A stretch of DNA of 64,000 nucleotides from Amoebophrya sp. A120 (GCA_905178155.1 CAJINV010000016.1:124001-188000), one strand, 5' to 3'; numbered from the stretch's first letter, positions 15,927-61,000 are shown. Numbers and translations are program-made. Notes: generated from the letters alone by a model not told the origin.

Positions 15927-16011
15927 GATTGATTCTTGATTTTTGATTGGGGAAAACAAAAAAAATTCAAGTTTTCAGCTTTTCAAGACTAAACCGAAAT
16001 GGGCGAGTCCC

Positions 16012-16805: not shown

Positions 16806-16879
16806 ACTTGTTCTTTTGTTTTTTTCTTGAAGAGTAGTAGACCATTGTGATTGATAATTCGATATTTGAGACTTATTTC

Positions 16880-17700: not shown

Positions 17701-17756
17701 AACAGAAACAGTAAAGATAATTAAAACGCACATATACAAATTGTTCCTCCCCACCG

Positions 17757-25700: not shown

Positions 25701-25937
25701 ATCGCGATCCCAGGCTCCCTTCCCGAACAGCCGATCCCACACCGCGATGGCGCGCAGCGGTCCTTCGCAGGCAAGGAGGCGGAGGAGCATGTTCGTCACT
25801 CGTGCCCGGTGGGGGGAGTAGTGCGAGGCAGTTTTCCTCTGCAGTGAAAAGCGGACAGTAGCTCGCAGCCTCATCGAGCTGGTGGATGCCGGGGAGGACG
25901 AGATTGATTGATGAGGAGCAGTGGTTGTCCTCGTCAT
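22743..25937 (-). pseudogene. Array gene C: paralog with PPPDE/LRAT-like domain and a frameshift near 23615 (pseudogene or assembly error)
   Basis: IDHYFVTF...IVVEY; NYNAVRRNCQNFVN. ORFs 23603-24280 and 22743-23606 join if one AC dinucleotide is removed. Confidence 0.55.
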
Positions 25938-32570: not shown

Positions 32571-33976
32571 TCAGGCTGGCGGTCCTCCAAACGAAATCAG
32601 TTGTTGATCCATCGACCCGAGTTCTTGCCGTGCTTTCTCGACGACACTGTTACGAACGTCAGAAACGGGCATCGTTGAGTAGACCGGCGTGGAGTGCGGT
32701 CCAGCGGTGGCGGGCATTTGCGATGCGTAGTCGGTTGGGATGTTGTGCTTTCGGTCTTTCATCATGTTTTCCGCGAACTTTTCGAAACCGGCGTCGTACA
32801 GCAGTGGCTCTCCGTGACTGTCCAGTTGCAGGGCGTAATTGGGTACGGATTTCATCGGGTTCGGGTCGGACGGAATGGATTCGGAGCCAATTTGGAAAGA
32901 ACTGCCCATCGCGCTCCCGGTGCTCGAGAAAAAGTTGTGCAAGTACGTGTTTCCGAAATGCACCGTCGATTGCTTCTTCTTCAACGTCGGACCCGCGGCT
33001 CCGGTTTCGTCGCTGTCCCCTGCATATCCTGTGCAAAAGTATCGCACTCGTATATTAAATGCAAATCTTGCATTACAAATCTTGTTCCCAAGGCAAATCT
33101 GCATTACAAATTTTATTTCTCACGCTCCTGAGGAAATTTGTAATGCATTTATATATACGAGTGCGATGCCTTTGCAATTCATACAGCAGCTACGGAAAAA
33201 TTCGCCGTTGAACCCGCGATCATCGTCGTTTTGTTCGCTTTCGAGCTTTATGAAGTGCAAAAATGTCTGGGTCTGGAAGGTTGGAACTTGTGATGCTAAC
33301 TTTGGACTCTAAAAAAATCTGTATTGCATGACCAGCAAGAGGAGTCTAGTTTGTGCTACGCTGGGAGGGCATTTGTCATGCTTAGTAGGCATCAGGAGGC
33401 CTTCTAAAGATCTGTGATGCTAGGTCGTGCATTACAGACATCCTGTTCCTGGGTCATGCAAAATATGCATGACAAACCCGGCAACATTCCAGACCCAGAC
33501 ATTTTTACATTTGATAAGCTTTTTGTCCCACCTCCTGCGGATTGTTGACCACTCTTCGGGGTGGACACTGAAGTCGTTGCCGGCGTCGCGAGCAACTGTC
33601 GTTTCGGTTCGAGCTTTTGCAGCATGTAGGCGAACGCGATGATGAGCAGCAAAATCGTGGTGGTGCAGAAGAGAATCGTTAAAGACAGATTCGTCGTGCA
33701 CTCGCATTTCCTCGCTGATTCGGCTTTGGTGCCGACAGAGTGTGAGTGCTCGAGGAAGCTGTTGGACGACGAGGCTTTGGGCAAATTGGAACTCACGTAG
33801 TAGAGGAAATCGGAAGCGGCGGAGGTGGTGGCGGTGATGGAGGAAGCAGCTGCTATGACACCCGTGGTTTCAGCAGCTGCGTCGCTGCTGCTCGTCCATC
33901 CGCCCCAAGAAGAGGAACTCGAGGATGCTTGTGGGGAGCTGACGTCGCCGCCGCTACCCAGAATCAGCTCAAGCAT
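32571..33976 (-). CDS. Single-pass membrane protein, paralog of 1956-5150; 2 introners
   Basis: KCECTTNLSLTILFCTTTILLLIIAFAYMLQKLEPKR...GGTKS|SKANK...VAA|GDSDE...PVYSTMPVSDVRNSVVEKARQELGSMD. Confidence 0.7.
33025..33183. mobile_element. Introner, family F (TAT....TGCAAAAGTATCG.ACT.GTA TIR, about 150 bp)
   Basis: TIR; flanks CTGCA/CAGCA. Confidence 0.85.
33249..33516. mobile_element. Introner, family A
   Basis: TIR; TSD AGCTT. Confidence 0.9.
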
Positions 33977-34974
33977 GGCGGTCCGTGTGTAAGTAGAAGT
34001 CCTCCTGGTGTGCAGTTAGTACTACTTCTATACTAGAGCGCTGCTTTGGTTTTTGAATCAAGTCTGGGGATGAACAGAAGTGAAGTCAAGTTGTAGTTCG
34101 CGCGGGCATGATAATGAAGATTTTTCATGTTTTTTCGGTCGTACGGAAGTATTTTTTTCGGTCGTAGGGCGCAAAGATTGATATCTTAGCCTGTGCAGAA
34201 GTAAAAGTAAAGCATTGAAAAACTACGCTAGCAAATAATTTGCACTAAAGATCCAGACGAGCCTATCCCTATCAGTGCAGCCGCGACGATACTTGCATGC
34301 AGAACAGGGGTGCGAAAGATTACCGAGGATTTCAAATCAAGTTCAAGACCACGCTATGAGTTGTCGTGTGGTCAACAAACCGAACAAAGTTCTTTTCATT
34401 TGAGTTCTATTTGAGCAGACCGACATCAGTAGGCAGCTGTTCCACATTGACCGACAAGTTAGCAGACGAAGCAAGGACTAGGAGAAGCTAGTACGGCAAG
34501 AATACGATGACCAAATTCTTCGCGGACGAGCTGACGGTGACCGAAAGGTCCTCCGCGAGGACGTGGACATAAAACCGAACTTTTCATCAGTATTGAAAAC
34601 GAACAAAACAATGGGCCTCGCAGGTCGTGCTGAAGAAGAGGCAAAATATCACTTGAAAAGCGAAAAATACACCGACCTTTCAGCAGAATAGCTGAGAGTG
34701 GTTGTTGATGAAAAGCGCTAACATTTTTTCACTTTCATGATCGTGTTGAATGATATATGCAATTCGAGCAAAACCAAAAAAAGAAAATGGGTGTCTTTCT
34801 GCTCTTGTCAACAACAACACATCTTCATGGCTGTGCGCATATGTCGTTCATCGTTTCATTATTGGCTGCTACGTGTCGTTTTGACCTCGATTTTTTGCGA
34901 AGATTTGCCGTATCAGTATCGTAATTCTCAATTGCCAGCATCCAACACCTTTCAACATTCACGTTGAGTATCTA

Positions 34975-37900
34975 TCATGTCGTCCCAACATATTCCAGCA
35001 ACATCGGCAAATGATCCGACACCGCAGCGCCCCGGTAGACTCGCGGTCGCCAATTTTGTTTGAACGAGTTCTCGAAGTCAACATTGCTACTGGTACTATC
35101 GACCACCACCGGCCTCACATAATAATAATCCACCCGCGCGGTTGACCACACAGTCATCTTCGGCGGTTGCAAATCACACAAATCAAAGCAGTCTCGGAAC
35201 CCCGTGTCCCCCTTTTCCAAAAACTCACACACGTTACTGTTGAACGGCTTCGGGAATCTGGCAAGCCGGTCGGCGTCGTACTCGCATTTTTCCTTGTTTT
35301 CAAGAGCTATCAAATGTAAAAATGTCTGGGTCTGGAAGAGTCATGCTGTTTTTGCATGACACAGAAGGTCTGGCATGGAAGCTCTAGCATCACAGGTTTC
35401 GAGAACCTTCCGCAATGCCGAATCCGCATGACAAGTCCCCTATTTTGCTGACAAAAAGTTGGAGCTTTTGCTAGGTAAGCATGAGAGACTTTTCTGTGTT
35501 CTGAAATACGCATTACAAGCAGTGGATGACTGTGAACGCAGCTGGATGACTGTGACCTGGCTCGTCTTCGATGGGCAGGCGGATGACTGTGACCTGTCTC
35601 GCCCATCAAGATCCCTAATCCGTAGCCCCTAGACGTTGCCTGGCCCGCGAATGACTCCACGGCAGCCGGATGTCCGTGACCTGGTTATAAAGGGCTTCGT
35701 CGATCGATTGTGCCACTAGGGCCTTGTGTTCCGGCTACTCCGGATCGCAATCGATGGAGGGCGGGACCTGCACCGGCGACAGGCGCTATCCAACCAACCA
35801 ACTAACAAGTTGCAATCTTCCAGACCCAGACATTTTTGCATTTGATAAGAACCCGCAGCGCGTTCAAATCGCCACAAAGGATGTCGAGGGTGGTTGCTGT
35901 AGATGTAGTTCCGGTGGACTTCTTTTCTGCATCGGAAGTTCTTGTTCCAGATGACGTTCTACTTGATGAAACTGCTGGTTTTGATATCCCTTTGTCCAAC
36001 CTCCCGACGATCTGCTTCGCCTGTTCCAAAGCCACCTTTCCCTCCAAATCCCAAATTTCCAGATGCGTGCCAGTCACTCGCAGATTCAAATCCTCCGTGA
36101 TTTTCACAAACCCGGTCGATACCGCGGACCGGTCCTCGTGCGGCCGGTAGTTTCTCGCGCCTGCCATGTGCAGAATGAAGGGCGAATTCGGTAGTTCCTG
36201 ACCGTTTGTATCAATATCACCACCAAACTGCATCTTCCTCCTGGACAAAATCACGTTTCCGAAAAACGCGCCCCGCAACTTCATGTGCCAATCCCATTTT
36301 GTGGTGTTCCCGTACAGGAAAAATTCGTAGCCGCAATCCTCCCGCATTTTTTTCTCGAAGTTCTGTTTCGTCAAGTACGGCCATAACAGCATGGCTTCGT
36401 TCAACACCAAAATGTTGCAGTCCAGTAGCTTGATCTCGTTGATGATTTTCTGAATGTCCAGCTGCCCGTGAACCGTGTGCCAAAATTGAATGTTCCACAC
36501 ACCTAAGCGGAATTTCGCTTTTCCCCTCGCGGTTTGCAGGTCCAGCGGAGAGGTGTAGTAGATTTCATCGGTTTGCTTTGTATTTTCCTTTGAACCTTCA
36601 CCTTCACCTTCTGCATCACAAGTTTCGCTGGGCGAAAGTGACCCCGACTGGTTTTCTGCCACGAACCTCAAAAACTCCTCCGTTAGTTCCTTTCTCCCCC
36701 GTATTTTCGGCGCCCACGGACCGTCGTAGAGCCGGATTCGCAAAATCCCAATAATCTCCACCTTCGAGTTGTCGTAACACACGTAAATCGGGCACTCCCG
36801 GCCCTCGGATCTTGGTGTGAAATTCGCGGTTGTAACGCCGGTCACGTGGGATGATGAACAGGATTCGTGATCCGCTTTCAGCAAACAGACAAACACCCAG
36901 CCTTCGCCGGAAAAGCAACTCGCGGCGTCAATGTCGGAGGCGAAGTACGTGACCTTCCCGATCTGCCCCAGTTTGGGCTTGAAAAAACCGGATTCTTTGT
37001 TGTTTTGGAGGATGGACCAGCAGGTAGACACGGACGTGCCGTGGAAGGCGATGGTGTGGCTTGGAGAAGAGGTACTAAATTCTGTTCCTGTTTCCGCATC
37101 ACAACTTTCATCTGTTCCGAGGCTACTACTTGATGGTAAGGCTACAATTCCTGCTCTCCCCTTCCAATCCTTCACCATGTAAACCTCTTGGATCCGCTCC
37201 AGCGTGCCGTCCGGATCAGCGGTGGAGAGGAAGCCTTGCTTTCTTGGGCCGAACCCGCTTTGGAGGAAGGTTAACGCGGGTGCAGAAGTGCTGGTGTTTT
37301 TTTCTTTCTCGTTTTCTTCTTGCGTAGTTTCAGTTTCTCTTGCTGGTGGCGCTGCGGTTCGAGCGACTTTGACCACGAAGGGCCTCAATCCGAAGAAGAT
37401 CATGGGCGCCACGTGCTCACCGACGAAGAGGAGGAGGTGTCCCAGGTAGAACGCACGCCAGATGATGAAAACAGCGGTGAGGCCTGGAAGAAATTAGATT
37501 TTTAGAAAATTTGAAAAGTACGACGTTCTTTCATTTTTGATACTTGGTAGTAGTACAGCAGCGGCAGCGCTCTGTATCACGGAAACATGATGAAACAAAA
37601 TCCAATACAGAACCATAAGTATGAAGCGCAGCACAAAAATGAGCTCTACCGCTTCCCCCCGTCGCGAACAGTTCCCCTAGAAAAACCTTCCCGATCAACG
37701 TGTACAGCCAGCAGACACCAATGGTCACGTCGTGCATAAACCGCTGCCTGCGGAAGGACCGCTGCTCGAACAGGGTCAAGAAAAACCACATGTACAGCCG
37801 GTCGAGGACGTTGAACAGCAACAATCCGTACACGATGAAGAGCCAGGAGTTCCGATCCCTTCTGTCCACGAGTAAAAAGGGGTAAATCAGGTTGTAGAGG

Positions 37901-39363
37901 GTAAATCCGAAAATCTTCGGACCTCTCGTCTCAACCGACAATTGTGGGATGGAATGAAGGAGTGTCGCGAGGTCCTTATCTGCGTCTGGGAGCTGTTTAT
38001 TTGAGGAGGCATTTTTACCCGTAGTCATTCCGTCGGTGTTACTGCTCGTCAAAAACGCTTTCTGCAAGTATTCGTCCACGTCTTTTTGTATTTTCCTCGC
38101 ATCCTTTGCGGAGAACTGCCCGGTTTCTGCCACCTTCTTCATGTAATCCCGGATGACATGTTCTTGATTCTGACCGATGGCACCATCTGTAGTAGTTGAG
38201 CCTCCCTGGTGCATACCAGAAACAGATCCGGGTGGCAGGTCCACCATTTCCCGCCACAATTTCTCTTCCCCAATCACCTCCGATCGGTTAAAAACGCGCT
38301 CGAAAACCGCGCTTTTCTCTTCCAAAATCTTCCTGCCCAACTCCTCCGGCAAAACCTTCTCGTCGTTTTTCGCAGCAGTGTTTTCGTGCCCGTGAGTCCG
38401 CCCGAGAAAGTTCGCGATGTTCGTATGATAGTGCACAACTCCCCCTCCCCCTCATTTGTCATGCAAAATACCCAATCCACCCTTTGCCTCTTGGCACTGT
38501 GTGCATGACAAGTTCTGGTAGCCCAAATAGCACTATACTCCAGCGCAAATCTGTCATGCAAAACCGGCACTCTTGCTGATGCTTGTATTGCCGTTCGTGC
38601 TACACAAATGAGGGGGAGGGGGAGTTGTGCACTGTCATAGTTCGCCGGTAGGATGCTGAAAGCCGGGCAGGCGAAGGCCGCGAGGTTCTCGATATGCCAT
38701 GTAAATTTCCCGTATATGTACAAAATGCATGACAATTTTCGCTAACTTGCGGTGTCCAACTTGTCATGCTAGACCAGGATTGAAGGCAAGTTTTGTCATG
38801 CAGAGACTGCATTTGTACGTGTACTTACGGGAAATTTACTGTGGATACTCGAGGCCCATCTTCACCGGGAAGTGCTGCTGCACCAGGCCGAAAAAGGTCA
38901 AGGCGTAGATGGTCGTGACAAGCAACGAGTCGCGCTCGGGGGAACTGGTGGCAAGCACGATTAAACCGTAGGTCGGGAGGAGGAGGAAAATGTTGAAGTA
39001 CAGTTGTGAGATGCCAGCGACAAGGTTTAGGTAGCTGCTTGAAGACGACTTTGCTGTCGGTCGTGTCGGGTGCTTTGATGCTGGCTTGTTCTTGGTCGTG
39101 TCACCTGCAGCTGGTGTGGAAGGTGCAGTCGCCACTTCATCTGCATGAAGATCACCTCCACCCACAGTCACGATCTCTTCTCTTTCGAAAATTGTCTTCC
39201 ACGCAACCATCGCCGTCGTCGTCAACACGAGCACCGCTAAAATATGCTCCGGCGCGGCGAGAAGTTCGTTGAAAAGCGATTTTAGGTGCGAGTCCCACAT
39301 ACTTGCCGCCAGCGCACCGTAGCAGCAGGTCGTGAGAAGGGTGGCACCGGGGAAGTCGCCCAT
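34975..39363 (-). CDS. Multi-TM protein fused to a PARP-like ADP-ribosyltransferase domain and an exonuclease/endonuclease/phosphatase (EEP) domain
   Basis: Joined through introners 38693-38847, 38424-38639, 35308-35847 and GT-AG intron 37484-37649. ART motifs: AFHGTS, GKVTYFA, IYVCYD. EEP motifs: GVWNI, LVLNEA, GNVILSR, GTHL, CGDLN, RVDY, SDHLP. Confidence 0.7.
35308..35847. mobile_element. Introner, family A, with a nested insertion
   Basis: TIR; flanks AGAGC/AGAAC; removal gives GDLNALRVL|ENKEK. Confidence 0.85.
35520..35804 (+). mobile_element. Nested SINE-like or truncated non-LTR insertion
   Basis: Flanked by duplicated ACAAG; internal GGATGACTGTGA repeats; ends in a CCAACCAACCAACTA tail. 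Confidence 0.55.
38424..38639. mobile_element. Introner, family C
   Basis: TIR; TSD GTTCG. Confidence 0.9.
38693..38847. mobile_element. Introner, family G (TAT....GTAAATTTCCCGTA TIR)
   Basis: TIR; TSD CTCGA. Confidence 0.85.
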
Positions 39364-39841
39364 TCTTATTCGTTGAGTTCAAACCAGATAAGGATGTGAA
39401 CGAACAAGGCAAAGGAACGAAGAGACCGTCTTTGTTGCTATGTGTTGATCCCGAATAACTACATCCGATGGCTTGTGCATCAGCGGTGAAATAGCGATGG
39501 AAGAAGTGGGACCGACTTAGTAGACTTACATTAGTGATTGAAGAAAAGACAAACTTCACATGAGAGGCTGCACAGTCACAGACTTACACATTATATTAGT
39601 GGCTGCATACGACCGCTCCACCCAAAAAACTCTCCGAAGACCTGCTCTATGAAGTTCCATCTATCTAACTCACTGACAGTGACTCGCTCGGCAGAAAAAA
39701 AAGATCTTGGGGACATCCAAAAAAAGTCTTTGGGTGTTGAAAGACACGACCTCCGGCAAACGCGGCCGAAAGCTGAAGCAAAATTCCGTCTTCGCAGAGG
39801 CAGAATGTAGCTGTACTCTTGCAATTCGTTTTAATATTTCG

Positions 39842-40423
39842 TCACAACCTCAGCAACCTGTGCATCAGCTGGTGCGAGCTTTGGTAGTGTGCCAAATCTA
39901 TATCACCTTTTTCGTCACTTTGCAAGGTAACCTCCAGAACGTCAAGGTGTTGCAAAGGTGCTACGTCGTTTGTGTTTGTGCTTACAGGTGGAAGAACTCC
40001 TTTTTCTGATGTTGCTGCAGAGTCTGGTATAGCATGACTCGAAACTCCATTGGTACCACCATCCGCTGCAACAGCAGCGAGCTCCTCAGGGGACAAAGAT
40101 CCTTCCACTCCAGCATCCACCGTAGAAGTTTGTGTTGATTTTTCTTCTTCTTTGACCGCGGCTGAACTCCCACTTGATTCCGCTTTCTGCGAGGTGCTGC
40201 TAGCTCCCGCGGCGACAGGAGCACTACTAGCGGTCGCAGACGATGTTGAGGGTATTGTAGAGCCTAGCTTCGGCGTTTTCAACCATTTCACGTCTAGGGA
40301 GTTTGGGTGCGCGACTTTTAGCCCCGGGACGAAAAAGTCGATAAAATCCCGCGCGACGGTGTTCTCCGGCGCGGTGCGGAAATGAAGCTTGGTTATCCGG
40401 GGCAGCAGGTACGGCATGCCCAT
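39842..40423 (-). CDS. Putative L51/S25/CI-B8-domain protein (mitoribosomal-like) with a low-complexity insert
   Basis: LPRITKLHFR...ARDFIDFFVPGLKVAHP and LEVTLQSDEKGDIDL...QLMHRLL resemble this fold; recognised by eye only. Confidence 0.45.
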   Translation of the reverse strand: MGMPYLLPRITKLHFRTAPENTVARDFIDFFVPGLKVAHPNSLDVKWLKTPKLGSTIPSTSSATASSAPVAAGASSTSQKAESSGSSAAVKEEEKSTQTSTVDAGVEGSLSPEELAAVAADGGTNGVSSHAIPDSAATSEKGVLPPVSTNTNDVAPLQHLDVLEVTLQSDEKGDIDLAHYQSSHQLMHRLLRL

Positions 40424-42596
40424 GATGGCGCGCTCTGAGGTATGCAGAGGGAAAGTTGCGCTTGCGTATGCTGCTTTCTTGCGGTATTAACGAGACAGAT
40501 AGAAGTTTAGCAGATCATTTGATACAAAGACGCCCCGTCGATGTGACGTCTTGGCTCGCGTACGAGCGCGGTGCAAAAGACAAGTGATTCCTATGAGATG
40601 CCCAAATGCATGCACGTCTGCCTCGAAGTACGTAGCAGAAGGATAACTAATTTGAGTCCAGGAAGGCAACATACGCAACAGAGTTTTCCCACAAGTAGAG
40701 GCGCCGGCTGGTTGGAATGGATACGGACATGATCAGGGGGCGGCCATGAGTTTAGTCTCTTCAAACGGGGTTTTCAACGTCCTCCTCTTCGGGATGGATG
40801 CTTTATTTCGTATGACTATGACAGTCAGCCCGCAATAAAACAAAAAGTAGCCAGTGCCAGAGCGTAAACGACTGCGAAAAACCAACCAAGAAGAGCGCAT
40901 CACATGGCACCGAAGGGGCAGGAAGCCGAGTTTGGGCGTGCGTTAGCAGTCCATGCATGCAGGAGCAAGAAAGCAAAGTGCTGGAGCGATTTTGTTTTTC
41001 TACTAGCTTCTTCTCGGCGAACACCACCACAAACCAAATTTTCCTCCCGGGGGCGGGTAGATCCGCTGCGACATGCCACAGATTGTGGCCACACGGCGCG
41101 CCCTTGCTGGTAAATTGCAAAAAGAAATTTCCAGTGACCTTGCGCGAGGCCACGGGCGGCAATATATACATCAGACGGGGGCGGCGACGCGCCATGCCCC
41201 ACTTCACTCCCGGCGCCGCCCGGGGGCCAGTACGTAGTAAGCCTAAAAGCCTGCGGCGCCAACAACGCGCAGGGCGCGCGGCCACCCGAGTTCGTCTTTT
41301 TCGGCGGCGCAGCGGTGCAAACAGAACAGAGATAAACCCCGGGGGCCCGGGGCCTTTCATGTCAGCCGCCGAAGTCTGGCGGGCCCCACCGAATGGGGCC
41401 ACAAATAACAGGCGCGGGCCTGCGCAGGCACAAGGCACCCGGCCCCTGCGCACGGAGGCGGCGGGCCGCGCAGGCAGCCTAGCTACAAATAAAAGGCGCG
41501 CCGGGAGGCGGGGGAGCGGGGGGGGCCCCAAGGCCCCGCCTGCCGCCGCGCGGCGGCGGGCCGGGTGCATACTGCGCACGCACAGACGCCCGCTGCCACG
41601 CTTAGAGTGGGCGGGGGGCTTGGCGGGAACCGGCGCGAAAGATTTGCAGCGGGCCCGCGAAAGAGCAACGCCACGCAAGCTGCTCCACACGGAGTGAGTG
41701 CGGGAGAGGTTCGGCTCATGCGTGGGGGCCGGCCCCACCCGCCGCCAACTTCCATCGCCGGCGAACTTACACGCAGGCCCGCGGGCCACCAGACGAGACC
41801 AAATAGTGGGCCGGGGGCCACGCCTTTGCTGGGCGGGCGGCCGTGGCGCAATGCCACACAGCGGGCGGCGGGCTCCTGCTATGGAAGGCCGCGCGTGCCC
41901 TGACCCCAAACAACGCGGGAGAGTGCGGGGCGGGGCGGCTCCGCCCCTGCTCTTGTCTCTTCCGCGGCAATCTTCTTGGCGCGCGACGTGGGCGCCCGGG
42001 TCGGGTGTGCAAAACACCACACCGCAACCACTGGCCGCGAATAAGGCCTGCGCCTGCCGCCTTCTGTCCACCCGATTGAATTTCAGAACTGCCATTTCCG
42101 TTGCCGTCAATAACACCACACGGAAGAACGCGGTGGCAGAATTACGCTATGTATTTGGAACACTTTACACGAACACGACTCTCCTATACGTGAACGGGAG
42201 CAGCCCCACCGTGACGTTCTGTGCTTTGACGCTCGTCTACGTCAAGTTCATTATCCTGAACGCAAAGAGCGTTTCCTCGTCGCAATGACAAAGGTCATTA
42301 TACCCGGTTCCCAATTCGTCAATGTACATTCACATTGGAAAATTTGATGTCGCATGGTCGCAACTTACTCGAGAAACAGAAGGTGGATCTATCACTTCAC
42401 TTTTGCCCCATCAAAAGAGTCGAACTAATTCGTACTAGACTCGCAATCGTCATCCTCAGTCGCTTCTACTATTCACGTAAAATTTGATTTTGAGCGGGAA
42501 AAGAACAAAGCGCTTCATCTATCGAGGACATATATTGGACGAACGCGTTCTTCCGATCTACTTCAAGACCTCCACTAAAAATCCTAAAACATCACA

Positions 42597-45500
42597 TCAC
42601 AGCGCGTCCTCCTTCTCCTCCCCACCGCCTCGCCTCCACTCGCCCATCACTTCGGTCATGATCTGCTGCTCCCACGTGTTTTTTAGTTCCCGCTTTTTGA
42701 AATGCCGTGGCTTGTCCGCAGTCTGCACAGTGAGGAAGTCCAAGCTATCCTCGCGGAAATCCACTCTTGTGATCAGCTCCACGCGTCGCAGCATCCCCCG
42801 TTTGTTCGGCTTCCGGCTTTGTCGCTCCTCCGCTAAAGCCTGCTGATGCTTTTTCTTGTTCGATTTTTGCTGCAAGACCTCTTTCGGAAGAAACGACTTC
42901 TCGTAGGCCTTCGCGCGCCGCTCATTCAGGTTCTTCGGCAGCCAAGTCGCGGACTTGCCGTTTCCTTTAGCGGTTGAATTCGCAGACGAATTGTAGTTGT
43001 TTTCAGCCAGGCCGTTCTGCACCTGGATCTGCTGGAATTGCTGGGCGGTGATCAGATTCATGGTGTCGGGGTCGTCTTGTCGCACTGGTCCAGCACCTCC
43101 TCGGGTAGCTGCGTTGTTTGTCGTCGTCTCTGCCCTCGTGCCATTCCGCACATTCACACCAATCCCCTGCTCTTGCATCTGCAGCTCCATCATCTCGATT
43201 TTCTCCAGCCATTCCAACCCCTTCTCCCTTTTCTCTACCTCCCATTCCGGCGTGAAATCTCCTATGCTGTGCAAAAGTATCGCACTCGTAGTAATTGCAG
43301 ATATGCGTGACAAATCTTCCTCCTAAGGTAAAACAGCAGTACAAATCCCACTTTTCTTCTTGCCAAAATTTGTAATGCAATTTATACTACTACGTTACTT
43401 TTGCAATGCATATCTCCGACGTAGTCGCAATCCAGCCACAAAAACTCGTTCCCACGGCCGGACACTATGAACTGCAAAAGTATCGTACTCGTACTAATTG
43501 GAGACATGCATGACAAATCGCCTTCCTTACCTAAAACAGCATTACAAATTTCATCTGTCATGCGAAGGAAATTTGTAATGCAATTTATACTAGAACTAGT
43601 ACGATGCTTTTGCAGTTCATAGACACTAACTCCTTGCGAAACTTTTTCCGCACCTCCAACACGTTCTCCGCGTGCTTTTTTCTCGCTTTGTCCAAATCCT
43701 GCAAGATCCGCATCGGGTAATTGTGGACCTGCAACACCATGATGTCAAACTTCGCCGGCGCCTCCCAGGGACAGTGAATGTACTCGATCGGGAAGCTGGC
43801 CAACTCCGGCAGCCACCGCTTCACGTAGTTTCCCTCGGGGTCACAAGACTTGGCCGCAAACACCGGGTGCATCACAAAGTTCCATTGGTCGAGGCCAGAA
43901 TGGCCCCCGTTCTGCCACATGTGGGCGTTAATGGAAACATCGGTGTCGATCAGCGTGTAGTCGAACCATTCGAAGCCGTGCTTCCAGTTCACATCCAAGT
44001 ACTCGATCAGAAATTGCGCCACCACGTGGCGAAGGTAATTCGGCATCCACCCGATCTTCCACAGCTGCACCATCGCTGCGTCTACTAAGGGGAACCCGGT
44101 TTTCCCCCGCTGCCACCGGCGTAATCTGTCTTTCGTCTCGAGAGAGCTGTTGTTGGTGAACCGGGATTTTAAACTCTCGTTGATCTTATTCGACGTTTGG
44201 TTTGCGTAGGACTGCTCTTTCAAAAGCTCTTTTTCCTGCTCGGAGGGACCGGTTTTATTCTGCTGCGATTTATTTCCTGTTATACCACCCGGTGCTGCTC
44301 CTGCTGCGCCAACCATGGAATTGTTATTTCCTTGTCCAGCAATATTGTTCGGACCTGTTCTTCCCGCGGGCGCAAAGGATCCGGTTAACTGCTGCTGTTG
44401 TATCGCCGCCGCCTATATCAACTGCAAAAGTGTCTGGGTCTGGAAGAGTGCCAGACTTGTCATGCAGGTTTTCCATGACCCATGAGGTCTGGTATGAAGG
44501 ACATAGCACGAGAGATTCTGTGAGAGTTCTATCATGCCTATCCTGCATGAGAAACTGCCTCTCGATAAGGTCAAAAGTGGACAGCTTTTGGTAATCATGC
44601 AGCACTGATTTTTACATGATTCAGATTTAGCATGACAACTTGCTTTGTTCCAGACCCAGACATTTTTACACTTGATAGCCTCCTTCTTCACGCTGAGCAA
44701 GGCGTTCGCACTGTCGTCCTTCTTCTTCCGAAAACGACTGCGGGTTTTGGCCTCGGCAGGAGCGTCTTCATCTTTATTTGTTGCAAAGCCGGAAGATGAT
44801 GTTGCAGCTTTTGATGTTGATGTTCCGCTCGTTTTAATATTTCCTGTAGCTGTTCCAGTTTCCTCCTCATCCTTCATCGTCCACCACTTCTGGTGCTCGT
44901 ACTGTCGCCTCAAACTCGTATCCGGTAAGTCCGGAAACCGCCACAAGCACCAATAGGCCAAATCTCGCCACAGAAACCGCCTCAGAAACGTCGCACGTAA
45001 TTGTCGCCACCCTTTTTCCGGTAGGTTGATCTCGCCTAAAACCAACGCTCCCCGCGCGAAGCACGTCCTGGCGGTTAACTCTCCGAACCGGACGTAGGGA
45101 CTCAACATCGCGGTGTACTCCCTATCCGCCCGGAATCGTTCTCTGCCCTCAAACAAGCCTTCAGCGAGAATCTCGTTGCAGAAAATCTCCAAGCGGTTCA
45201 ACCCTGCTTGCTCTCCCACCGTCCAAAACTTCTTCATTTCGTACGCCCAGTCCTGTTTCGCGGGATTGTCGTACTTCGGTTTGGGCTTGTTTAACACAGG
45301 AGGCGAGGGCTCAGCAACATCTTTCTCTTTGCTATTGCTTGTCGCGGCCGCAACAACAGCCATCGGTTTAAGATTTGTCTCCAAATACCGCGGATTGTAC
45401 TGCTTAAACCGACCGGAATTCCACTGCGGATGGTGCTTCATCCAGCCCGGTGCGTTCTTCGGCAGGTAGTTCAATTTTTCGTCCTCCATCATTTTCTCCG

Positions 45501-47400
45501 ATTTCTTCTTCGATACCGGCATGTTTTTCCCACACGTGTAGACATCGTAGCCCAAATCATCCAACGTAAAGGAAAAAATCGCATTCTGGTTCTTCAACCC
45601 GATAAGCTGTTTTATCCTGGGCAAAGGCTTCAAGTACTCTTCCAAATCCACAGCTGTTGTCTGCGCGGAGGCGGTCCGGCCGGTGCCGTTTTGCTGTTTG
45701 GTCGTGTAGTTCTGCCGAACGCCATTGTGATCTGCAGTACTATCGCTGTTCAGGTACTTAACCACCAAATGCTCCTGCGGGATGTTGCACACCGCTTTCT
45801 TGTACCACTGCACGCTACCGAACCCCCAGCCCTCAGCATTCACCTCCGGATCCGCTACCCACGGGGCGACCAGAAGCGATCCCGGGGTAACGTATAACCC
45901 GCTCAGGTGTTACAATTTCAAACGTTACAATAGAATATGGAAATCTGTGATGCAAGAGTGCATGATCTGGCCAATTCTCATGAGATTGCGCATGACAAGT
46001 TCCAGAGTCCCAAACCCCACTACAATCTGGCGACATTTGTATTGCAGAAAGTGGCGAACGCTCTGCGAGTCTGTCATGCTCATCAGGCAACATAAATCTC
46101 AGATTCTATTGTAACGTTTGAGATTGTAACGTTTGAGCAGGCCATATAACGTCGACCTGAATTTTGGACACGAAAACCAAGTCGAAAGGTGGTGTGCTTG
46201 AACTTGTGTTGCTGTCGTCGGTTGCAAGCAACTGGTTTTCTGCACTTGCATTTTCTTCCCCGGGTAGATACAGTATCCCAGCATCGATTAACTCCTGCTG
46301 GGTCTGGGGATCTAAATCGTCTGGGAAAGCAGGAGCGGGCGTGCTGCTGGCGGTCGTCGCGGTTGGGGTGGGCGTGTTTGGGTTGTTAGTTGTTGCCGCT
46401 GTGGCATGTTGGTTTCTTGTACCACCAGCCGTCCCAGATGCACTCGCTCCTCCACAGCTGTACTTATATTCTTCCCAGAATTCACTCGAACACTTCTCCG
46501 ACAGATTGTCACCCGGAATTATTTTCATAAGTTCCGCCCGCACCCAATCATCCTCGGAGACATACCAAGGCTCATACTATGCAATACAAACTTCCCGTAC
46601 ATGTACAAGATGCATCACAAATTTCCCCAATTTGGAGTGTGGAACTTGTCATGCTAAACTAGGATATAAAAGCTAAATTTTGCCATGCAGAGACCGCATT
46701 TGTACGTGTACGGGAAAGTTACTGTTGATAGGTACCTCTCGTTAAACACGACCCTCGTCGCTCCCGTTTCGGCGATGAGAGACAGCATCACGTCCAGCGG
46801 GTCGCCGGAGCGGATGATCAATTTCAGCCCGTATTTGGTCTGCAACTCCTCGGCGAAAGTTCTTAAGGATTTCCCCTTGTACCACAATCCCGCGCCGCGG
46901 AGGGGCCAGGGGGAGCAGTCCGCTGGGTTGTGGATGAACACGGGAAGGATCCGGCGGGTGACAGAAGTACTATTTTGTTGCTGCTTTGTGTTTTTCTGCT
47001 TGTTTGCAGTGCTGTTCGTATTCCCGGTACCGGATGAAGATGGCGCTTTACTGCCATAGAATCTCTGTTGCGACCCAACACCACCAGCATCAGATTTTAG
47101 ATGCGCGTCTGGCGGCTCGCCGTAGGCCAGTGCGTGGTTGTCGACAAAACGCATGTCGTCGCGCAGCCAGACGATGACGATCTCATCCTCTTGGGCTGCT
47201 GATGCGGTGTTCAAGCTTGCATTTTTTTCACCATTTGAAGATGTGCCTTGTTGCGGCAATTGTGTCGCTTGTGTCCTCGACGTCGTCGCTCTTCCGGGGT
47301 TCGAGTTCGTCGCATCACCCGCAACAGAGGTGGAACCAGCATCTTGGCCGACGTTTCTCCCCTGCTGCTGCTTGTTCCCTCCTCCTCGAGGGCGTGCCAT
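42597..47400 (-). CDS. Cryptochrome/DNA photolyase family protein; 5 introners
   Basis: IVWLRDDMRFVDNHAL, VFNERY|EPW, LSPYVRFGELTAR, WQRGKTGFPLVDAAMVQLWKIGWMPNYLRHVVAQFL, DPEGNYVKRWLPEL, IHCPW. Confidence 0.9.
43263..43412. mobile_element. Introner, family F
   Basis: TSD TCTCC. Confidence 0.88.
43466..43621. mobile_element. Introner, family F
   Basis: TSD GACAC. Confidence 0.9.
44416..44677. mobile_element. Introner, family A
   Basis: TIR; flanks GCCTA/GCCTC. Confidence 0.88.
45893..46146. mobile_element. Introner, family E-like
   Basis: TSD TAACG; removal gives QVDV|TPGSLLVAPW. Confidence 0.85.
46578..46730. mobile_element. Introner, family G
   Basis: TIR; flanks CATAC/GGTAC; removal restores FNERY-EPW. 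Confidence 0.8.
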
Positions 47401-50400
47401 GATAGTTGTTGGAGTTACGTATTTGTATTTTTCTGGCTAGACGTAAAGTAAACTACAAGTAGACGAAGAAATGAATAAATCCAAGTAAAATGTTACCGCT
47501 GTGCTGCGAATAAGTAGAGCTGAAAACTTCTACTTCACAAAGCTTTTAACAGCGCAATAAGCGGGTGGATTGGTGTATGAGCCAACACGACGAGAAGCAT
47601 GTATTTCGTCTTAAAATCTGCACACTTGGCAAACACCTTTAGTGCCACCGTACTTGCTTTATGCTGCAAGGGAGCGAGAGAGAAGGAGTCCATTTTCAAA
47701 AGTCTAAAAATGAGAGGCGTTCTTGGACTCACCAAATAAATGCTCCTGTTGTAAGTACTAACCGTGACTACTGCGCCAGCCGTTGCGTCGGCATACGCGC
47801 TAACGGTACTTGCCCTGTCACGCAAAGGCGGAAAAAAAAACCTAAAATCGATGCGGGTTTGGTTTCACTGAATCAGTGTTGGAACTGGTTGAAAGAGGTT
47901 CTTGCTAGGGTAGGCGGTAGAGGTACTATTTGGTCAGGCTTTGTAGAGGTGTGACGTGGTAGCTTTTCAAAAAGTAAAAGGGTGAGTGCGCCGGAAACAT
48001 ATATCAAGGGAACTGCATCTTGTGATAAAGAACGAACTTCAATCGATTTTGTTATTTTCCGGGGACAATCAGGGTGTTTTTTGTTTAGGGCAATCTGGTC
48101 CTGTGGGAGAAAATAGATCACGAATTCAAGGGGGAAACTTGAAATGACAAAGAAATAAAAACTCTCTTCATCGGCTGCAAGAACCCACACACAAATTGGT
48201 CTCGCTTGTGTGCTTGACGGAACTCACTAATACGAAAAGCATATACAACTTGTCTTGTTTCGCTCAATCAATAAGCACGGCATGTAGGCTAGCACGAATG
48301 TATGATGTGTAAGTGTATTATCATCTTCTCGTCATGGAAATAGAAGCGCCAATGCCAATCAGAGTCAATGAATAGAATCCGACATCATACGCAACATTGT
48401 ACCGAAATTATAAGCACTCAGACATAAATTAAAATGTTGAGGACCGACCATCCGGATCCTGTTCTCTCTTGTTCTTTAACGAAATTTTTAATTGAAGAAC
48501 AGGAACAATCTACAAGTTGATATGCCTCTGACGAGGACTGTGTAAAAGTTTGCTCGTCCTCCTTGTATTTTCTCGATAGTTTTTTTTCGCTTTTTGTGTT
48601 ATACCTTTCCACCTCCTTCAAAATGTGCACATTTTTCATCTTTTCGCAGCATCTCTGGTGCTTGAACTTGAAGATTTTGCTTCGGTATTTCTTTGTCGAA
48701 ATAAGTATCCAACATCTCCGTTCTTGTTGTTTTCATCGCAGTCTCGAGGCTGAAGACAAGCTGTCTCTGAATCGTAATGGTGTGTTGAGAGTTCTTTACG
48801 ATTTCTTCATCAATTCCTGGGTACAAAACTTCACCAATTCAACGATGAATGAATATCCGTGATTTACTCGTACTACACGACACACCACTAGACACCGCCG
48901 CTGTAGTCAAGACCAGTCTGCGACGCGAGCGTATAGAATTCGAGTTTCTTCGTGTGTCGAGATCCGGTATAATCAGTTGTACTAGCTTGTTGTCGCCGAC
49001 CATGGTCGCTCGATGCCGATGCGTTGGCCAAAAAAAATTTTGTTCATTGTCGCCGAGATAAGTAAATTCAAAGTAGCCGGAGGCCTTTTACTTTGAAGAA
49101 TAAATTTGGAAAGTTAAGATCAATCAGGTCAGGAGCCGTTGTAGAAACAATTTTTATGGTATGACATGTCATACTCGGCGCTTCTATCTTCTTGCCTTAT
49201 GAAGCTATAACTCCCTTGCATCAACATTTACATTTTTCCTCGAACGATAGCAAAGACACCAGGTGCGTGCGGGAGGACATCCACGTCTTCACACTGCAAC
49301 TCATCATGGACAATTCATAGGTCACAACCTTTTTCTTGCAGCCGAAAGGCGGGACGCTGTGGCTGTGGGTATAAAATCCTATTGTGAAGATGAAGAAGAA
49401 GTAGACACTATAGTTGTCCTATGATGTACAACAGCAGTGACTATCAGCAGTGACTATCAGCACTTAGAGCGAAATCCTGATAGTAGCTAGAGGTGTTTGA
49501 TGTTCTGAAAGTAAGAGACGACGACCATGCGTAAACGATGCATCATCAACAAAATCAGACTCAGACCTCACCAGTGTTATTGTCTTTATTTTTTTCTCGC
49601 TGTAGGTGGAGATGCGCTATCTTGGCATGAAATTGCACGTCGTACTATATTGAAAACTAAAATCCCAAAGGGAAGTTTGAAAATAAGCACTGTAGCATAG
49701 CGAACTGAACATAAATGTGTAAGCACATCCTGCGAGGGGTTTTTTGAAAATGAAGAAGGAAGCGACTACGTGAGTCCCTAGCTATAAAGGCCCAATTGGT
49801 GTTGTGCTGCAGCTGTTCTTTCTCTAGGCTCAACAATATTGTGTACATCTTCTTCTTCAGCACTGCAGCTTCTTATTCAACATCCTCTGTGGCGTTATCA
49901 TTATTCATCTATGACTTCTTCGTGTAGTCGTACAGCACTTGCTCGCTGAGTCGTGCCAGTGCTAGAGGGGCCTATAAGTGGCACCACAGTCCGAGAGAGT
50001 TCTTCAAGTTTATGTGTGGTTTTGGTTCAAGTTAGTAGGTGTACAGTGTACTATTCTTGCAATAAAGCTGCAGTCAGGATGACAAGTCGCTCTTCAAATC
50101 ATAATGTTGACATGATCTTCCTGACCACCCGGAACTTCTTCATCTGCCTACACTTTCAGAAATCCAGCAGACTTTTTTGCCTTCTTCTGATGCTTCCGTA
50201 AAAATTCGTATGTATCATCTATACGAAATTCAAGCCCAGTAGGTACGGAGTTCCTCTACCGAATATTCCTGTTCCTATTAATCGAGAGGGGTTACTTATG
50301 TTGTACGAGCTGCCACAAGAAAGATCATGATCAACGACCTCTGTTGACAAAAAAAAAACTGTGCGCCATACAGAATCTCTTTAGTCTTTGGAAATGTTGG

Positions 50401-52022: not shown

Positions 52023-55000
52023 TTATTCCCGATCTTCATCATGCTCTGCCAGCATCTCCTGCAGATTTTCTCCGTACTGGTCCGCAATACAGGCTTATGC
52101 AAGAAAAAAACTGTGCAAGGGTAAGTTTCTTGGAGGAATAGCATCACAAGTTTGCTCTGCATGACACAGAAATAAACCTGTCATGCGTAGCTAGTACTTG
52201 AAAACACGTACGGAAAAATTAGCCTCTGATGCATGTCCAGCAGGACAAGTGTAACAGTTTTGCATTTTCTGCAACACAAAGTTCTTACACTATAGACAGT
52301 TTTTTCCTTGCATAAGGCTTGCATCTGGTCCGCGAGCATCTCGGCACTCCACCATGCGCCCTCGACGGTCGCACACCCGCTTGCCCAGTCACCGCAAATT
52401 CCCAGCTTGTGCTCCTTATCCAGCCAGCAGTAGTCTTGCTTCTCCGCCCTGTTTGAGAAGCGTGGTTTCCATATTTCAATAATTGCAACAGAAATTACTC
52501 TCTCAATTTTGTCAGACCCGAAGATCGAATTTTCTTATGCAGGCCCACCAGGTACGAACAAATACAAAGCTGCGACCGTCTCTGTCCCGCATGTTGACTG
52601 CAAAAAGTATAATAGGAAACTGTGTAGTAGTATCTAGCGCGGGCGGTCGCTCCGCGACCGCCGGAAAGGTATGGAGTAGGCAAGAAAACGATGGGCCCGA
52701 TTTCCTACTAGGAAGGTTGCAGTCCTCGCGGGGAAGGGGAGGGGATTCTCCTGGGGGCGAAAACTCTACAGGCGCAGGGCTTCTCCGTCCGCCTGAACCC
52801 CCCGGAGAAAGACAGTAGGCGTGACAGCGGCCCACCCCAGCTCCCAGGAGCAGGAGAAGTTCTGGGAAACAGAAACCCAGGGCCACCCCAAGCTGAGAGG
52901 GGGCCAGCCTTCGGGGATGTTCCCAATGAATTTGCGAACGCCTCCGAAAGCTGCGAGCCTTGCGTGCGGCTGCTCGTCATTCTAGTTACGCCTCCAAGGC
53001 GGCAGGGCTGCTTTTGACGGGGCCCAGAGGGGCGCAGCTGTGGAAACTGCGCGACAAAGAACCTGGCCAGCCAGGCAGGTGCAACCAGCACAATGGGACT
53101 GGGCGCGCTGTGTGGAATAACCATTTAGGGCACTGAGAAAAGGCGCTTTTTTCTACGTGCAGGGCGGCGGGTGCATCCACACCAAGAGGGGGCCGCCCCC
53201 GCGAGGCAAAATGTGGCCACCCAAACAAAGCGCAAACCCCCTACCGGCACCCTGGCGGGGCCGGAGCTAGTTCGCCTGAACCTGCGGGCGCACCAGCGCG
53301 TAGCGCGCCACCCTCAGTCAGACAAATAAGTCCTTTCCCTCCCACGGCTGCGCCCCCTTATCCAGCCAGCAGTAGTCTTGCTTCTCCGCCCTGTTTCAGA
53401 TGAAGCATTTCCATTTTCGCATGTTGATAATTGCAAAAGAAATTAGTCTGTTAGTTTTGTCAGTAGACCCGAAGATCGAGGAGTTTTCTCATGCAGGCCC
53501 AGGTAAGAACAAATACAACGCTGTGACCGTCTCTGTCACTCACGCATGTTGACTGCAAAAACCATAATAGGAAGCTGTGTAGCTGTACTAGTAGTATCTA
53601 GCACGGGCGGTCCCTCCGCGACCGCCGGAGAGGTATGGAGGAGACAAGGATGCGATAGGCCCGCTTTCCTACGAGGAAGGTTGCAGACGCGGGGAAGAGG
53701 AGGATATTCTGGGGGCGAAAACCCTAAGCCCCCCGGAGAAAGACAGTAGGCGTGACAGCGGCCCGCCCCAGCCCCCAGGAGCAGGAGAAGCTCCGGGGGA
53801 AAGAAAGAACACCCGGGGCCACACCAGCGTGGAAAGAGGCGAGGCTTCTGGACGGTTCCCAATAAATTTGCGAGCACCCCCCAGGCTGCGAGTCTTGCGG
53901 GCGGCTGCTCGTCATTCTAGTTACGCCTCCAAGGCGGCAGGGCTGCTTTTGACGGGGCCCATAGGGGCGCAGCTGTGGAAACTGCGTGCGCGACAAAGAA
54001 CCTGGCCAGCCAGGCACGTGCAGCCAGCACAATGGGACTGGGCGCGCTGTGTGGAATAACCATTTTTTTCGGGCACCGAGAAAAGGCGCCTTTTTCTTCG
54101 TGCAGGGCGGCGAGAGCATCCACACCAAGAGGGGGGGCCGCCCCCGCGAGGCAAAACGTGGCGACCGAAACAAAGCGCAGAGCCATCCCTGGCACCGTGG
54201 CGGGGCCGGAGCTAGTTCGCCTGCACTTGCGGGCGCAGCAGCGCGCGCCGCACCACCCTCGGTCAGATAAAGAAGCCAGCTTGTGCTCCTTATCCAGCCA
54301 GCAGTAGTCTTGCTTCTCCGCCCTATTGAAGAAGAATGAATGTATTCGTTTGCCTTTGCATGCGAATAATTGCAACAGAAATTAATCGTTTACGTTTTAG
54401 TTTTTTCAGACCTCCCGAAGATCGAGTTTATTTCTCATGCAGACCCAGGTAAGAACAAATACAAAGCGAAAGCTGCGTCTCGGTGCTGCATGACTGCTAA
54501 AATTATAATAGGAAACTGTGTAGTAAAGTACCCTCTATTCGCTCCTGCCTTGCCCGGTCTGCCGATAACCTGGGCATACCTATCCAATGCAAATATGTCT
54601 GGGTCTGGAAGATGGCGAGGTTTGTCATGCTTGGCAGGCAGGAGTAGAGAAAAAAAAAACTGTAATGGATGCTGCCCTATAGTGCCTCTTTGTCTTTTGC
54701 GTCACGCAAAAATGCAGTTTGTCATGCAGTTTATGCAAGACGGAGTCGCTCAGAAACTTGTCTTGCGTGGTTCCGAAATGGAGCTTGCCTATTATTCGCA
54801 CATTAGCATCACAAGTTTCCAGACCCAGACATATTTGCAATGCATAATACCGCCACGCGTGCAGATCCGTGTACTCCAGACGGCGCATGTCAAACATGTA
54901 CTTCCATATGGGGTTCTCAAACGTTACACTTTCAACTGCTACATGATTTGTGATGCAAAATTGCCATCAGCCACACCACGATCAAGCTACTTCGCACGAC

Positions 55001-58000: not shown

Positions 58001-61000
58001 AATCCTGAAGCATGACAGATCTAGCATATCATGCTGATTCTAGCATCAAAAATTCCAAAACACGAATAGAAAATGCTTCTCATAGGGCTCCGCATGAGAA
58101 ACTTTTTTGGCATGCAGAATTGCATGACAACTCTGGTGTAGGGACGTTTTTACTCAGGATAGGGTGCTGTTGGTGTTCTGCAATGAAGGCGTTGTGTAGG
58201 GAACCGGGGACTCGGTCAATTGGAGGTGCTGCTTCTTGACAAGAACGCTGAGATTTTGATTTCCTCCTGTTGTGTTATGATTCACCGGCGTCGTGTCTTT
58301 AGAAGACGACTGTCCACCTTCGAGAAGATGTAGTTGACCTGCTCTACTATTGGGTTTTGTCTTCACCGGAAACAGCTTCCCGATTCTGCATCCCAGCCGG
58401 ACGTCCAGCTTGTTCCGCTTCGCTACCATTTTGCCAAGTTCGGACATTTTCGGCCAACCAACGAAGACCCGATTGTCTTGCAACTCCCGTTATGCATTGC
58501 AAATATGTCTGGGTCTGAATCTGGAAACTTGTGATGCAAGGAAGGGAATAGTGAGCGCACTGTAATGTGCTCCCCAGCATGACAAGTTTTTCTGTGGTTC
58601 AGAGTTGCGTACTCCGCATGAGAAACTGCGTGTTTGCATGACAGACAAGAGGAGCCCTTCGCGGGCACGCAATACAGAGTTCAGAGTCATGCCAGACTCG
58701 CATGACAAATCTCGCAATCTCCCAAAACCAGACATATTTGCAGTGCATACCCGTTCCGAACCGGTTTGCCCGTACATTTGCTCGCGGCTGATTAAATCCT
58801 CGCCTTGCACCTCATCGCGGTTCTGGTGCGTCTTCAAATGATTGTTCCCCCGTGGGGAGGATTTCAGATGATTCTCCCGGGGGGAACTCACTTTTGCGGC
58901 AGCAGATGCTTTGTTGCGATCCTCGTCTTCGGCATTTTTGTTATCCCTCGAAGTCGTGCCTTGGCCTTGCCCCTCTTTACGATCATCGCCCCCGTTTCTT
59001 GGTGAGGATTTTTTCTCCACACCCGAGCAGAGGTCAACATCATTTTTGCTGGAAGTGGGAGTCGTGGCAAGCAGAGTTGTGCCGTTAGACATTTTTCCCC
59101 CAGGAGCTGCACCACTCGCGGCCGTTGACGTTTTCATTTCTGCTAACAGTTCCTCCTTTCGGTTGAACTCCTTTAGAGCGTACAACCCGCATTCTAACTC
59201 GTGGGTCGCGGCTATTTCGTCGGAGGTGCGCTCCTCTGGAATCATATTGTTGTTTTTCACTTATGCACTGCAAAAGTATTATATTATATCGCACTTGTAC
59301 TAATTGCAGTCGTGCATCATGACCAGCCTCTTCCTTACTGTATTAAATCCGCATTACAACTTCCATTCATGTAGCATCAAATTTGTGAAACGCGATTACA
59401 ACTGCTAGTACGAAGATATTACTTGTGCAATTCCAATTCATAGCACTTTTCCTTTATCGATTTTGCAATCCTCGTCCGCGGCCGAGGCCACGCGACTTCG
59501 CGCACAGGCAGGAGCACCCCCACTCTTGCGATCGATGTTGAGGAAGTCGACATCGTAGCACCAGCAGTCGTACAGAATGGGGTTCTATGGATTGCAAATA
59601 TGTCTGGGTCTGGAAGGTTGGAACTTGTAATGCTGGCTTTCCATACCTAGAAAATCTGTATTGCATAACCAACAAAAGTCGCAGCCTCTTTTGTACATGC
59701 AATTTCGCAGGCTCGCATGCAGATTGCCTATGAGAAAGCGTTCTGGAAAGTTGTCATGCTGGGTCGCATTCGGAACTGTTTCCATCATCCACGCTTTAGC
59801 ATCACAAGTCTCCAGACCCAGACATTTTTGCATTTGATAGGTTCTTCCCGTTGCGCCACTCCACAGCGCCGACCTCATCTCGCGGCGCCTCTTCCTCGAT
59901 CACCGACCGGAGCTTGGAGGCGGTGGATGCCCAATTGTAACCAGCCGCGTCTCTGTCCGATCCCGGGTTTTCCCCCTTGTCACTGCTCTGCCCCCCCTGG
60001 GAAGCCGAGGTGTTGCCGACATCGCTGGTTGTGCTGGATTCGCCGTCTTCGTCACCCGCAGGGCTGGACGCAGATTCGCGGTCCTTCAGCATCCGCTTCT
60101 ATCATTTGTAAAAACGTCCCCACCCCAGAGTCAGGCTGGGGACTCTGCAACACAAACCTTGAAGTTTCCGGAACCACGCATGACAATAATGTAGGCTGTA
60201 ATGTAGTGCAGTTTAGTAAACAAAGCCGCATAACAAATCCATCTCCTCATCCTGTTTGCAGCATTACAAGTTCCAAAAAACAATTGGAAATGCCTCTCAT
60301 GGGGATGCGCATTACAAGCGCTCGTGTGCTTGCGGATCTGCATGACAACTCTGAGGTGGGGATGTTTTTACACAGGATAGCTTCTTATTGTTGTTCTCTT
60401 TCTCTTTCTCCGCCACCTCCTGGGAGTGCGTCCTCGTGCGTTCTTTATTGTTCACACCCCACCTGGGTTCGTGATCCTTCGGCAACCCCCACCGTCCGGT
60501 CTGCAAGCCGACGTCCTTGAGTTCCGCGGATTTCTCCTTCCCTTGCGAACTGTTTCGCTCGAAGGCGACCGTCTGCATCCAATCTTGGGACTGATAATTA
60601 TTTATTTCGATTTTTAGATACTCGAGGCTTTAATAGCTTCCACTTCGTGCAAGAATTTAACTTTAAGAACCACGATGCTGACAATCAAAGGGCTTAACCA
60701 AGCAAATCAATGAAAATAAAAACGAGGAAGGAAGATATCAAATTGCTAAAACAAAATAAACCAGACGACTTAATGAACTATATACGATCTGTCTGTCAAA
60801 TCCCCCGGATGGAAATTTCCCCAGGCCGCACGTTCTCTGTAGCCAGGCGTGAAAGTGCGGGTGCTTCACGCGGAAAAACGGCGCGCCAAAGTCGAACTGG
60901 TACCCGGTGGGGTCCGGCGCGCGGGTGTGCCGCGTGACTAATCTGCCCCCGCACGCGTTCGCTTTTTCAAAGATGATCACGCTATCAAGTGCAAAAGTGT

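Follow-up and report, generated by a model that had tools for sequence, protein, structure and literature searches.

Transcript joints within the 5-bp target site duplication of introner elements in Amoebophrya sp. A120

The host gene and its inserted elements

The 64,000-nt stretch of Amoebophrya sp. A120 analysed here (GCA_905178155.1 CAJINV010000016.1:124001-188000; hereafter the window) contains 42 elements in our catalogue whose inverted-repeat ends read TA(T)...(A)TA, and we describe where transcript joints fall within the 5-bp target site duplication (TSD) that flanks them. Two of these elements, at 44416-44677 and 46578-46730 (elements are named below by their first position), lie in a photolyase/cryptochrome-family gene (Table 1). 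Its protein product displays the Pfam domains PF00875 and PF03441 and corresponds to the deposited A120 protein P0002, with 100% identity across the first exon; together with a second deposited protein, P0001, it provides 100% matches to the exons of two window genes. Support for the gene model also comes from RNA-type contigs 4.3 and 4.7 kb long. Its strand is that of every open reading frame (ORF) restored by element removal in the window. An Rfam scan of positions 42000-48000 returned no match.

The catalogued elements fit the introner elements already known from this organism (Farhat et al. 2021, PMC7789003; this and the other papers are cited for the passages of each that were available). 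A profile of 80 element ends consists of TAT, then about 7 looser bases and then AAA, in agreement with that published description. The traits of miniature inverted-repeat transposable elements (MITEs) are present, namely terminal inverted repeats (TIRs), a TSD of fixed length and dispersed short copies; the available text of PMC7789003 reports that no cognate autonomous transposase was found in A120. Element families occur in both orientations within minus-strand genes (e.g. 35308/60983, 3620/38424 and 44416/55190), and the oppositely oriented relatives 55190/61296 and 56651/57628 are all missing from the annotated protein P0001. The two TIRs pair nearly always at positions 1-3 (in part through the selection of the catalogue), form Watson-Crick pairs in 35-80% of cases at positions 4-7, and mostly pair from position 8 onward. 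Two elements fold well as a whole, with z scores of -6.1 (44416) and -4.2, while the predicted probability of the terminal pair is 0.28 at 46578, 0.02 at 33025 and 0 at 59262, with no pairing predicted for the outer 13 nt or so of the stem at 46578. A 9-nt motif, GCA[TA][GCT]ACA[AG], is found 126 times in 10,161 element bases and 15 times in 53,839 other bases; it is present in both orientations and in 41 of the 42 elements, and may be a binding site for a transposase or a splicing factor. Two canonical GT-AG introns, at 55599-55728 and 56238-56460, hold two copies of this motif each and may be decayed elements that have turned canonical.

The duplication is exactly 5 bp and is not due to chance. 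Across the window catalogue, which was partly selected on the TSD and on TA ends, the two flanks match in 38-40 of 42 elements at each of five positions and in 6-17 of 42 at the neighbouring ones; for 206 elements picked without regard to the TSD, from 151 metagenome loci (L001-L151) of a close environmental relative, the corresponding figures are 191-198 and 34-69. This relative shares the element families and their 5-bp TSDs with A120, to which it is 88-91% identical in amino acids for the single gene that was compared. Perfect duplications flank 33 of the 42 window elements and 172 of the 206 from the relative, where six further elements with 0 or 2 matching bases may represent mis-paired ends. 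The nine window elements with imperfect TSDs (314, 744, 3253, 3914, 33025, 35308, 44416, 46578 and 59262) are the same nine listed in the initial annotation, which was made from the sequence alone. Among them, element 744-966 ends in GTA, is without the 9-nt motif and has flanks matching at 1 of 5 bases; deleting its length plus 5 restores a 239-residue frame despite this poor similarity.

Transcript joints within the duplication

We define the register k as the number of TSD bases contributed by the transcript-upstream copy. Four of the ten listed sequencing runs (X1, X3, X5 and X8) were compared with positions 32000-48000. Elements are precisely removed from the transcript contigs of X1 and X3, which are multi-exon and lack the elements; both runs come from one study and are RNA by the tool's guess. 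Their joints are among those listed, most of the listing being taken up by X5, and ambiguous joints are set leftmost by the alignment tool, as is visible at elements with perfect TSDs. The contigs of X5 are DNA-like and run without any difference through the TSD copies on either side of 44416 and of 46578, and this run may be the source of the window itself. The raw-read run X8 contributed 7 reads, all in repeats, and does not cover 32000-48000.

At element 46578 the joint falls between TSD positions 4 and 5. The plus-strand flanks CATAC/GGTAC correspond to GTACC upstream and GTATG downstream on the transcript, as the initial annotation had stated, and the joint 46573/46732 is found in X3 record 6, with X1 record 3 having the same start, 46732, and a matching length. 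The transcript reads GTACG, which is found in neither copy; the joint is without microhomology. Only k=4 fits, making this the sole joint bracketed on both sides. Protein conservation had been invoked to draw position 5 from the downstream copy, and indeed k=5 gives YQPW while any k of 4 or less gives YEPW, with ERYEPW present in all three aligned proteins, two of them from other organisms.

The remaining informative elements each bound the joint more loosely. Element 44416 has plus-strand flanks GCCTA/GCCTC, which give GAGGC upstream and TAGGC downstream on the transcript, as the initial annotation describes; as had been proposed, taking base 1 from the downstream copy (k=0) creates an in-frame stop and position 1 must therefore come from the upstream copy. 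Its contig joint permits k=1-5; k=3, with GC-AG ends, is compatible as well. The bound at 33025 depends on leftmost joint placement and on length bookkeeping for a hidden middle piece. At 59262 the deposited protein reads K instead of Q, therefore k is at most 4. At locus L004 of the environmental relative, residue E would come from the upstream copy and G from the downstream one; G is what the A120 orthologue carries, which may be taken as indirect support, by comparison of sequences, for base 5 coming from the downstream copy and hence for k of 4 or less.

Table 1. Positions of the host gene, its elements and the other elements informative on register, numbered in the window.
Position	Strand	Feature	Basis
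42597..47400	-	Host gene, photolyase/cryptochrome-family protein, 1267 aa, five introner elements inside	Pfam, protein match, exon map, contigs
46574..46731	-	Removed intron of 158 nt, made up of base 5 of the upstream TSD copy, element 46578-46730 and bases 1-4 of the downstream copy	RNA-type contigs
46731..46735	-	Upstream TSD copy GTACC of 46578, bases 1-4 kept in transcript	Contig joint
46573..46577	-	Downstream TSD copy GTATG of 46578, last base alone kept	Contig joint
44416..44677	.	262-nt element, long TIR stem; inferred intron 44412-44678	Fold z -6.1; joint
44678..44682	-	Upstream TSD copy GAGGC of 44416, base 1 kept	Contig joint
44411..44415	-	Downstream TSD copy TAGGC of 44416, base 1 not kept	Contig joint
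45893..46146	.	Perfect-TSD element, removed, uninformative on register	Contig joint
43466..43621	.	Perfect-TSD element, removed	Contigs and exon map
43263..43412	.	Perfect-TSD element, removed	Contigs and exon map
33025..33183	.	Element with an imperfect TSD, inside a different minus-strand gene, k=4-5	X3 record 4 ends at 33019
35308..35847	.	Imperfect-TSD element, k=2-5	X1 record 1, joint 35301/35847
59262..59442	.	Imperfect-TSD element, k<=4	Deposited protein has K, not Q; annotation, not reads

Taken over six informative elements, in five genes and two organisms, k=4 is the only single value that fits all. The initial annotation had placed the cut between TSD positions 1 and 5, and this stands, sharpened to positions 4 and 5 at 46578 with the five other informative elements compatible. 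Its proposal to read the transcript at the nine imperfect TSDs could be followed at 46578, 33025, 35308 and 44416 with contigs and at 59262 with annotation, leaving four unread. The 4+1 joint (four bases from the upstream copy and one from the downstream) is likely to be common to the whole element class, and we infer a single genome-wide register. In the relative, the 28 elements with 1-2 mismatches (from 34 imperfect TSDs among the 206) offer no stop-codon discrimination in their best frame, and Pfam anchoring of the flanks succeeded for 4 of 94 pieces, none decisive for the register. Under the 4+1 joint the intron-side base is C at 8 of 13 mismatches in the nine imperfect window TSDs, which is possibly due to chance.

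Two rival accounts concern the 4+1 joint itself. The register might not be fixed at all, with sites sliding inside the duplication or tracking a nearby GT/GC/GA-AG pair and 4+1 being merely the commonest outcome. The variable position of splice sites with respect to the hairpin reported in PMC7789003 is in line with this, as are the single fully bracketed element and the five of 42 elements (44416 among them) where k=1 or 3 could yield semi-canonical ends. That all six informative elements admit the same value speaks against sliding, and aligner placement is ambiguous at perfect repeats and can therefore account for the published variability; we regard this account as unlikely. Alternatively, the joint might be an artefact of reverse transcriptase (RT) switching template over the hairpin, of one-base RNA editing, or of strain differences between the RNA runs and the window. 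RT jumps classically arise at hairpins with a short direct repeat on each side. Possible editing has been noted at 2-4% of intron boundaries (PMC7789003). An RT jump within the GTA shared by the copies at 46578 would yield GTATG, not the observed GTACG, and a product present in neither copy and lacking microhomology argues against such a jump. Furthermore, element removal is required for a 1267-residue protein that is conserved in relatives, the host gene's listed exon pieces show 0-1 letter differences from the window, and both 59262 and L004 agree with the same register, making an artefact highly improbable.

The published motif table is also relevant here. Table S4 of PMC7789003 gives 9 predominant non-canonical motifs for A120, with T at +2 in all nine, any first base, and A at -2 in 8. 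Simulated on the 172 perfect-TSD elements, these motifs account for 17% of the introns at k=4 and 12% at k=1; their share is no more than 3% for k=2-3 and falls to 0% when k is 0 or 5. Since k=1 is the same joint read on the opposite strand, Table S4 does not distinguish k=4 from k=1, and its agreement with k=4 is suggestive only.

Candidate machineries for element removal

With k=4 the intron takes the form N5-TAT...ATA-N1N2N3N4, in which positions +2 to +4 are TAT in 40 and TAC in 2 of the 42 elements. There is no base preference at the inferred intron ends (first base A15/C11/G9/T7, last base C14/G12/T8/A8). The six canonical introns placed in the window start GTATAT, GTATTT, GTATAG, GTATTT, GTACTT and GTAGAG, so that their donors read GTA in 6/6 and GTAT in 4/6, and they match the TAT of the elements at 1 of the 6 registers only. 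This similarity at +2 to +4 is drawn from a small sample and from elements selected on TA ends. Because the 4+1 joint places TAT exactly where host donors have it, we favour a relaxed spliceosome over an endonuclease and ligase: the spliceosome would read N-UAU as its 5' splice site, probably choosing it through UA(U) at +2 to +4, and a 3' site without AG would sit four bases beyond the inverted repeat, with the stem presumably bringing both ends together and serving as a ruler. Some background is consistent with this. Strain A25 has repeats beginning with TTA, and TT-NN is the form of its 9 top motifs, which likewise gives TA at +2 and +3; A120 retains U2, U4, U5 and U6 together with 83 of 89 spliceosomal proteins, U1 not having been detected (PMC7789003); U1 is present in a relative with canonical introns (PMC12005148). 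Overall, we put the chance that the 4+1 joint is both class-wide and set by such a spliceosome, with a 3' end held at a fixed distance by the stem, at about even.

Several points weigh against this reading. Between a long stem and a 3' site just four bases away there is little space for a branch helix. GT-AG ends occur at k=4 in 0 of 42 elements, and the end bases are free, more so than in the signals that PMC11282704 summarises for introners of other hosts. The five elements that allow GT/GC/GA-AG at k=1 or 3 may be exceptions, and the canonical donors number six introns. TA..TA termini are also found in IS3EU/GingerRoot transposons (PMC10045372), and TAT may be kept for transposition only, in a catalogue selected on TA ends. 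Table S4 depends on the tie-breaking of an aligner and would also fit a mixture of k=1 and k=4. Reads bracket both sides of one element only, four of the nine imperfect elements (314, 744, 3253 and 3914) are unread, and contigs conceal rare isoforms; the RNA status of X1 and X3 is guessed, within a single study, and raw reads gave no coverage. Finally, the window has its element-bearing genes on the minus strand alone; plus-strand genes may therefore have a mirrored register, and the register could follow element orientation, with k=1 in some elements.

The main competitor, which takes up the idea of the initial annotation but with an enzyme of new specificity, would be a structure-measuring endonuclease whose cuts fall 1 nt ahead of the TIR stem and 4 nt beyond it, with an RNA ligase joining the exons. 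Free intron end bases, families in both orientations and long stems (both folded elements having strongly negative z scores) would all suit such an enzyme, and for the stem-closed nonconventional introns of euglenids an endonuclease has been proposed (PMC3935182, PMC11170887, PMC11282704) and excision as circles rather than lariats reported (PMC11282704). It leaves the GTA(T) donor match unexplained, however, and the terminal pairs it would measure from are poorly predicted at 46578, 33025 and 59262. Palindromic pairing of the TSD halves was rejected, since over 172 TSDs the rate for N1:N5 and N2:N4 is 26%, which does not exceed chance, and the two known substrate types fail. With the cut set within the bulge, the 4-bp exon-intron helix of a bulge-helix-bulge (BHB) substrate is absent (mean 1.38 of 4 pairs, 1/42 elements with 4 and 3/42 with 3); for IRE1, loop base 6 at the 5' cut would be the A of TAT in 42/42 elements, and the stricter CNG/CNG is seen at either cut in 0/42. 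The initial annotation had taken the staggered cuts as recalling tRNA-endonuclease or IRE1/RtcB-type splicing, an analogy that the data do not support. Two cuts at the same TSD position arise whenever splicing retains exactly one TSD's length of bases, and the stagger therefore favours no enzyme. A literature search linking RtcB, dinoflagellates and tRNA splicing found nothing. We hold the endonuclease to be a possible but tentative explanation. Its strongest form, in which tens of thousands of A120 mRNA introns are cut by a ruler (one base before and four after the inverted repeat), blind to end bases and orientation, by a non-spliceosomal nuclease-ligase pathway that is matched to the 5-bp TSD and leaves no scar, is rather doubtful.

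The elements themselves were already known; what the present analysis adds is a positional rule for a known, mechanistically open intron class, with one fully bracketed and five one-sided joints. If true, a single rule, N-TAT...ATA-NNNN, would replace variable and unknown borders, correct tens of thousands of boundaries in gene models and give lariat, circle and end-chemistry assays exact intron ends to work with, and it would account for insertions being able to do no harm whatever their site or orientation. Either mechanism would be unusual: the spliceosome would have to do without both G+1 and AG, or mRNA splicing would have a second pathway acting across the genome. Elsewhere in the window, several paralogous minus-strand ORFs with an FWD/VWD...FGKG.WD motif lie at about 14500-31300, one copy holding element 15265-15616 and other copies seemingly without it, a possible empty-site comparison. 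The P0001 model skips 1874 nt at 52415-54288 between two near-identical copies of its 3' region, likely reflecting a tandem duplication or an annotation quirk.

Comparison with known intron classes

Non-canonical introns make up around 65% of those in A120, and how they are spliced is described as an open question in PMC7789003, where the position of the splice site is variable relative to the hairpin, the border is unknown and the inverted repeats lie 1-5 nt from the splice sites. A published fixed register does not appear in the passages of literature covered, although Fig. 3 and S19-S23 of that paper may show one, and the available parts of PMC12130899 and PMC13326754 contain nothing on this register. 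The window elements are otherwise alike to the A120 introners of PMC7789003 in organism and in element, sharing the TAT-N7-AAA start of the inverted repeat, border repeats of 3-5 nt (here 5 bp), a hairpin, and non-GT-AG ends, with which they are removed from contigs guessed to be RNA. They differ in having, in place of a variable or unknown border, a uniform 5-bp TSD whose mismatches set the joint at 4+1.

As judged from the available passages, the nonconventional introns of euglenids (PMC3935182, PMC11170887, PMC11282704) are alike in their MITE-like origin, terminal pairing, non-canonical ends and border repeats, and also in a fixed offset from stem to splice site with the longer overhang at the 3' end. 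A stem joining both ends is found in A120 as well, with weak outer pairs in some elements. Euglenid introns have conserved CA/TG at +4,+5/-7,-6 (offset 2) and a tendency to a pyrimidine/purine border, whereas the A120 elements start N-TAT, pair +2 with -5 (offset 3), have free border bases and lack the CA/TG pairing. Non-canonical introns of Fritillaria borealis and introners of Micromonas and Aureococcus (PMC11282704, PMC7789003), which are handled by the spliceosome, are likewise TIR/TSD elements acting as introns with a TSD-derived splice site, but those keep specific end dinucleotides (AG-AC/AT or GY-AG), and the A120 elements have no conserved terminal dinucleotide except T at +2; nor do they have, at k=4, the GT/GC donor and AG acceptor of U2 introns. 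Substrates of the tRNA splicing endonuclease and of IRE1 resemble them in having two structure-defined cuts, joined exons and no need for GT-AG. The BHB motif is made of two 3-nt bulges flanking a 4-bp exon-intron helix (PMC6379350) and the IRE1 motif has, at each of its two sites, a 7-nt loop with C1, G3 and G6 in which the cut follows base 3 (PMC549064), whereas the A120 elements have neither a 4-bp central helix between bulges nor separate 7-nt loops with C1, G3 and G6.

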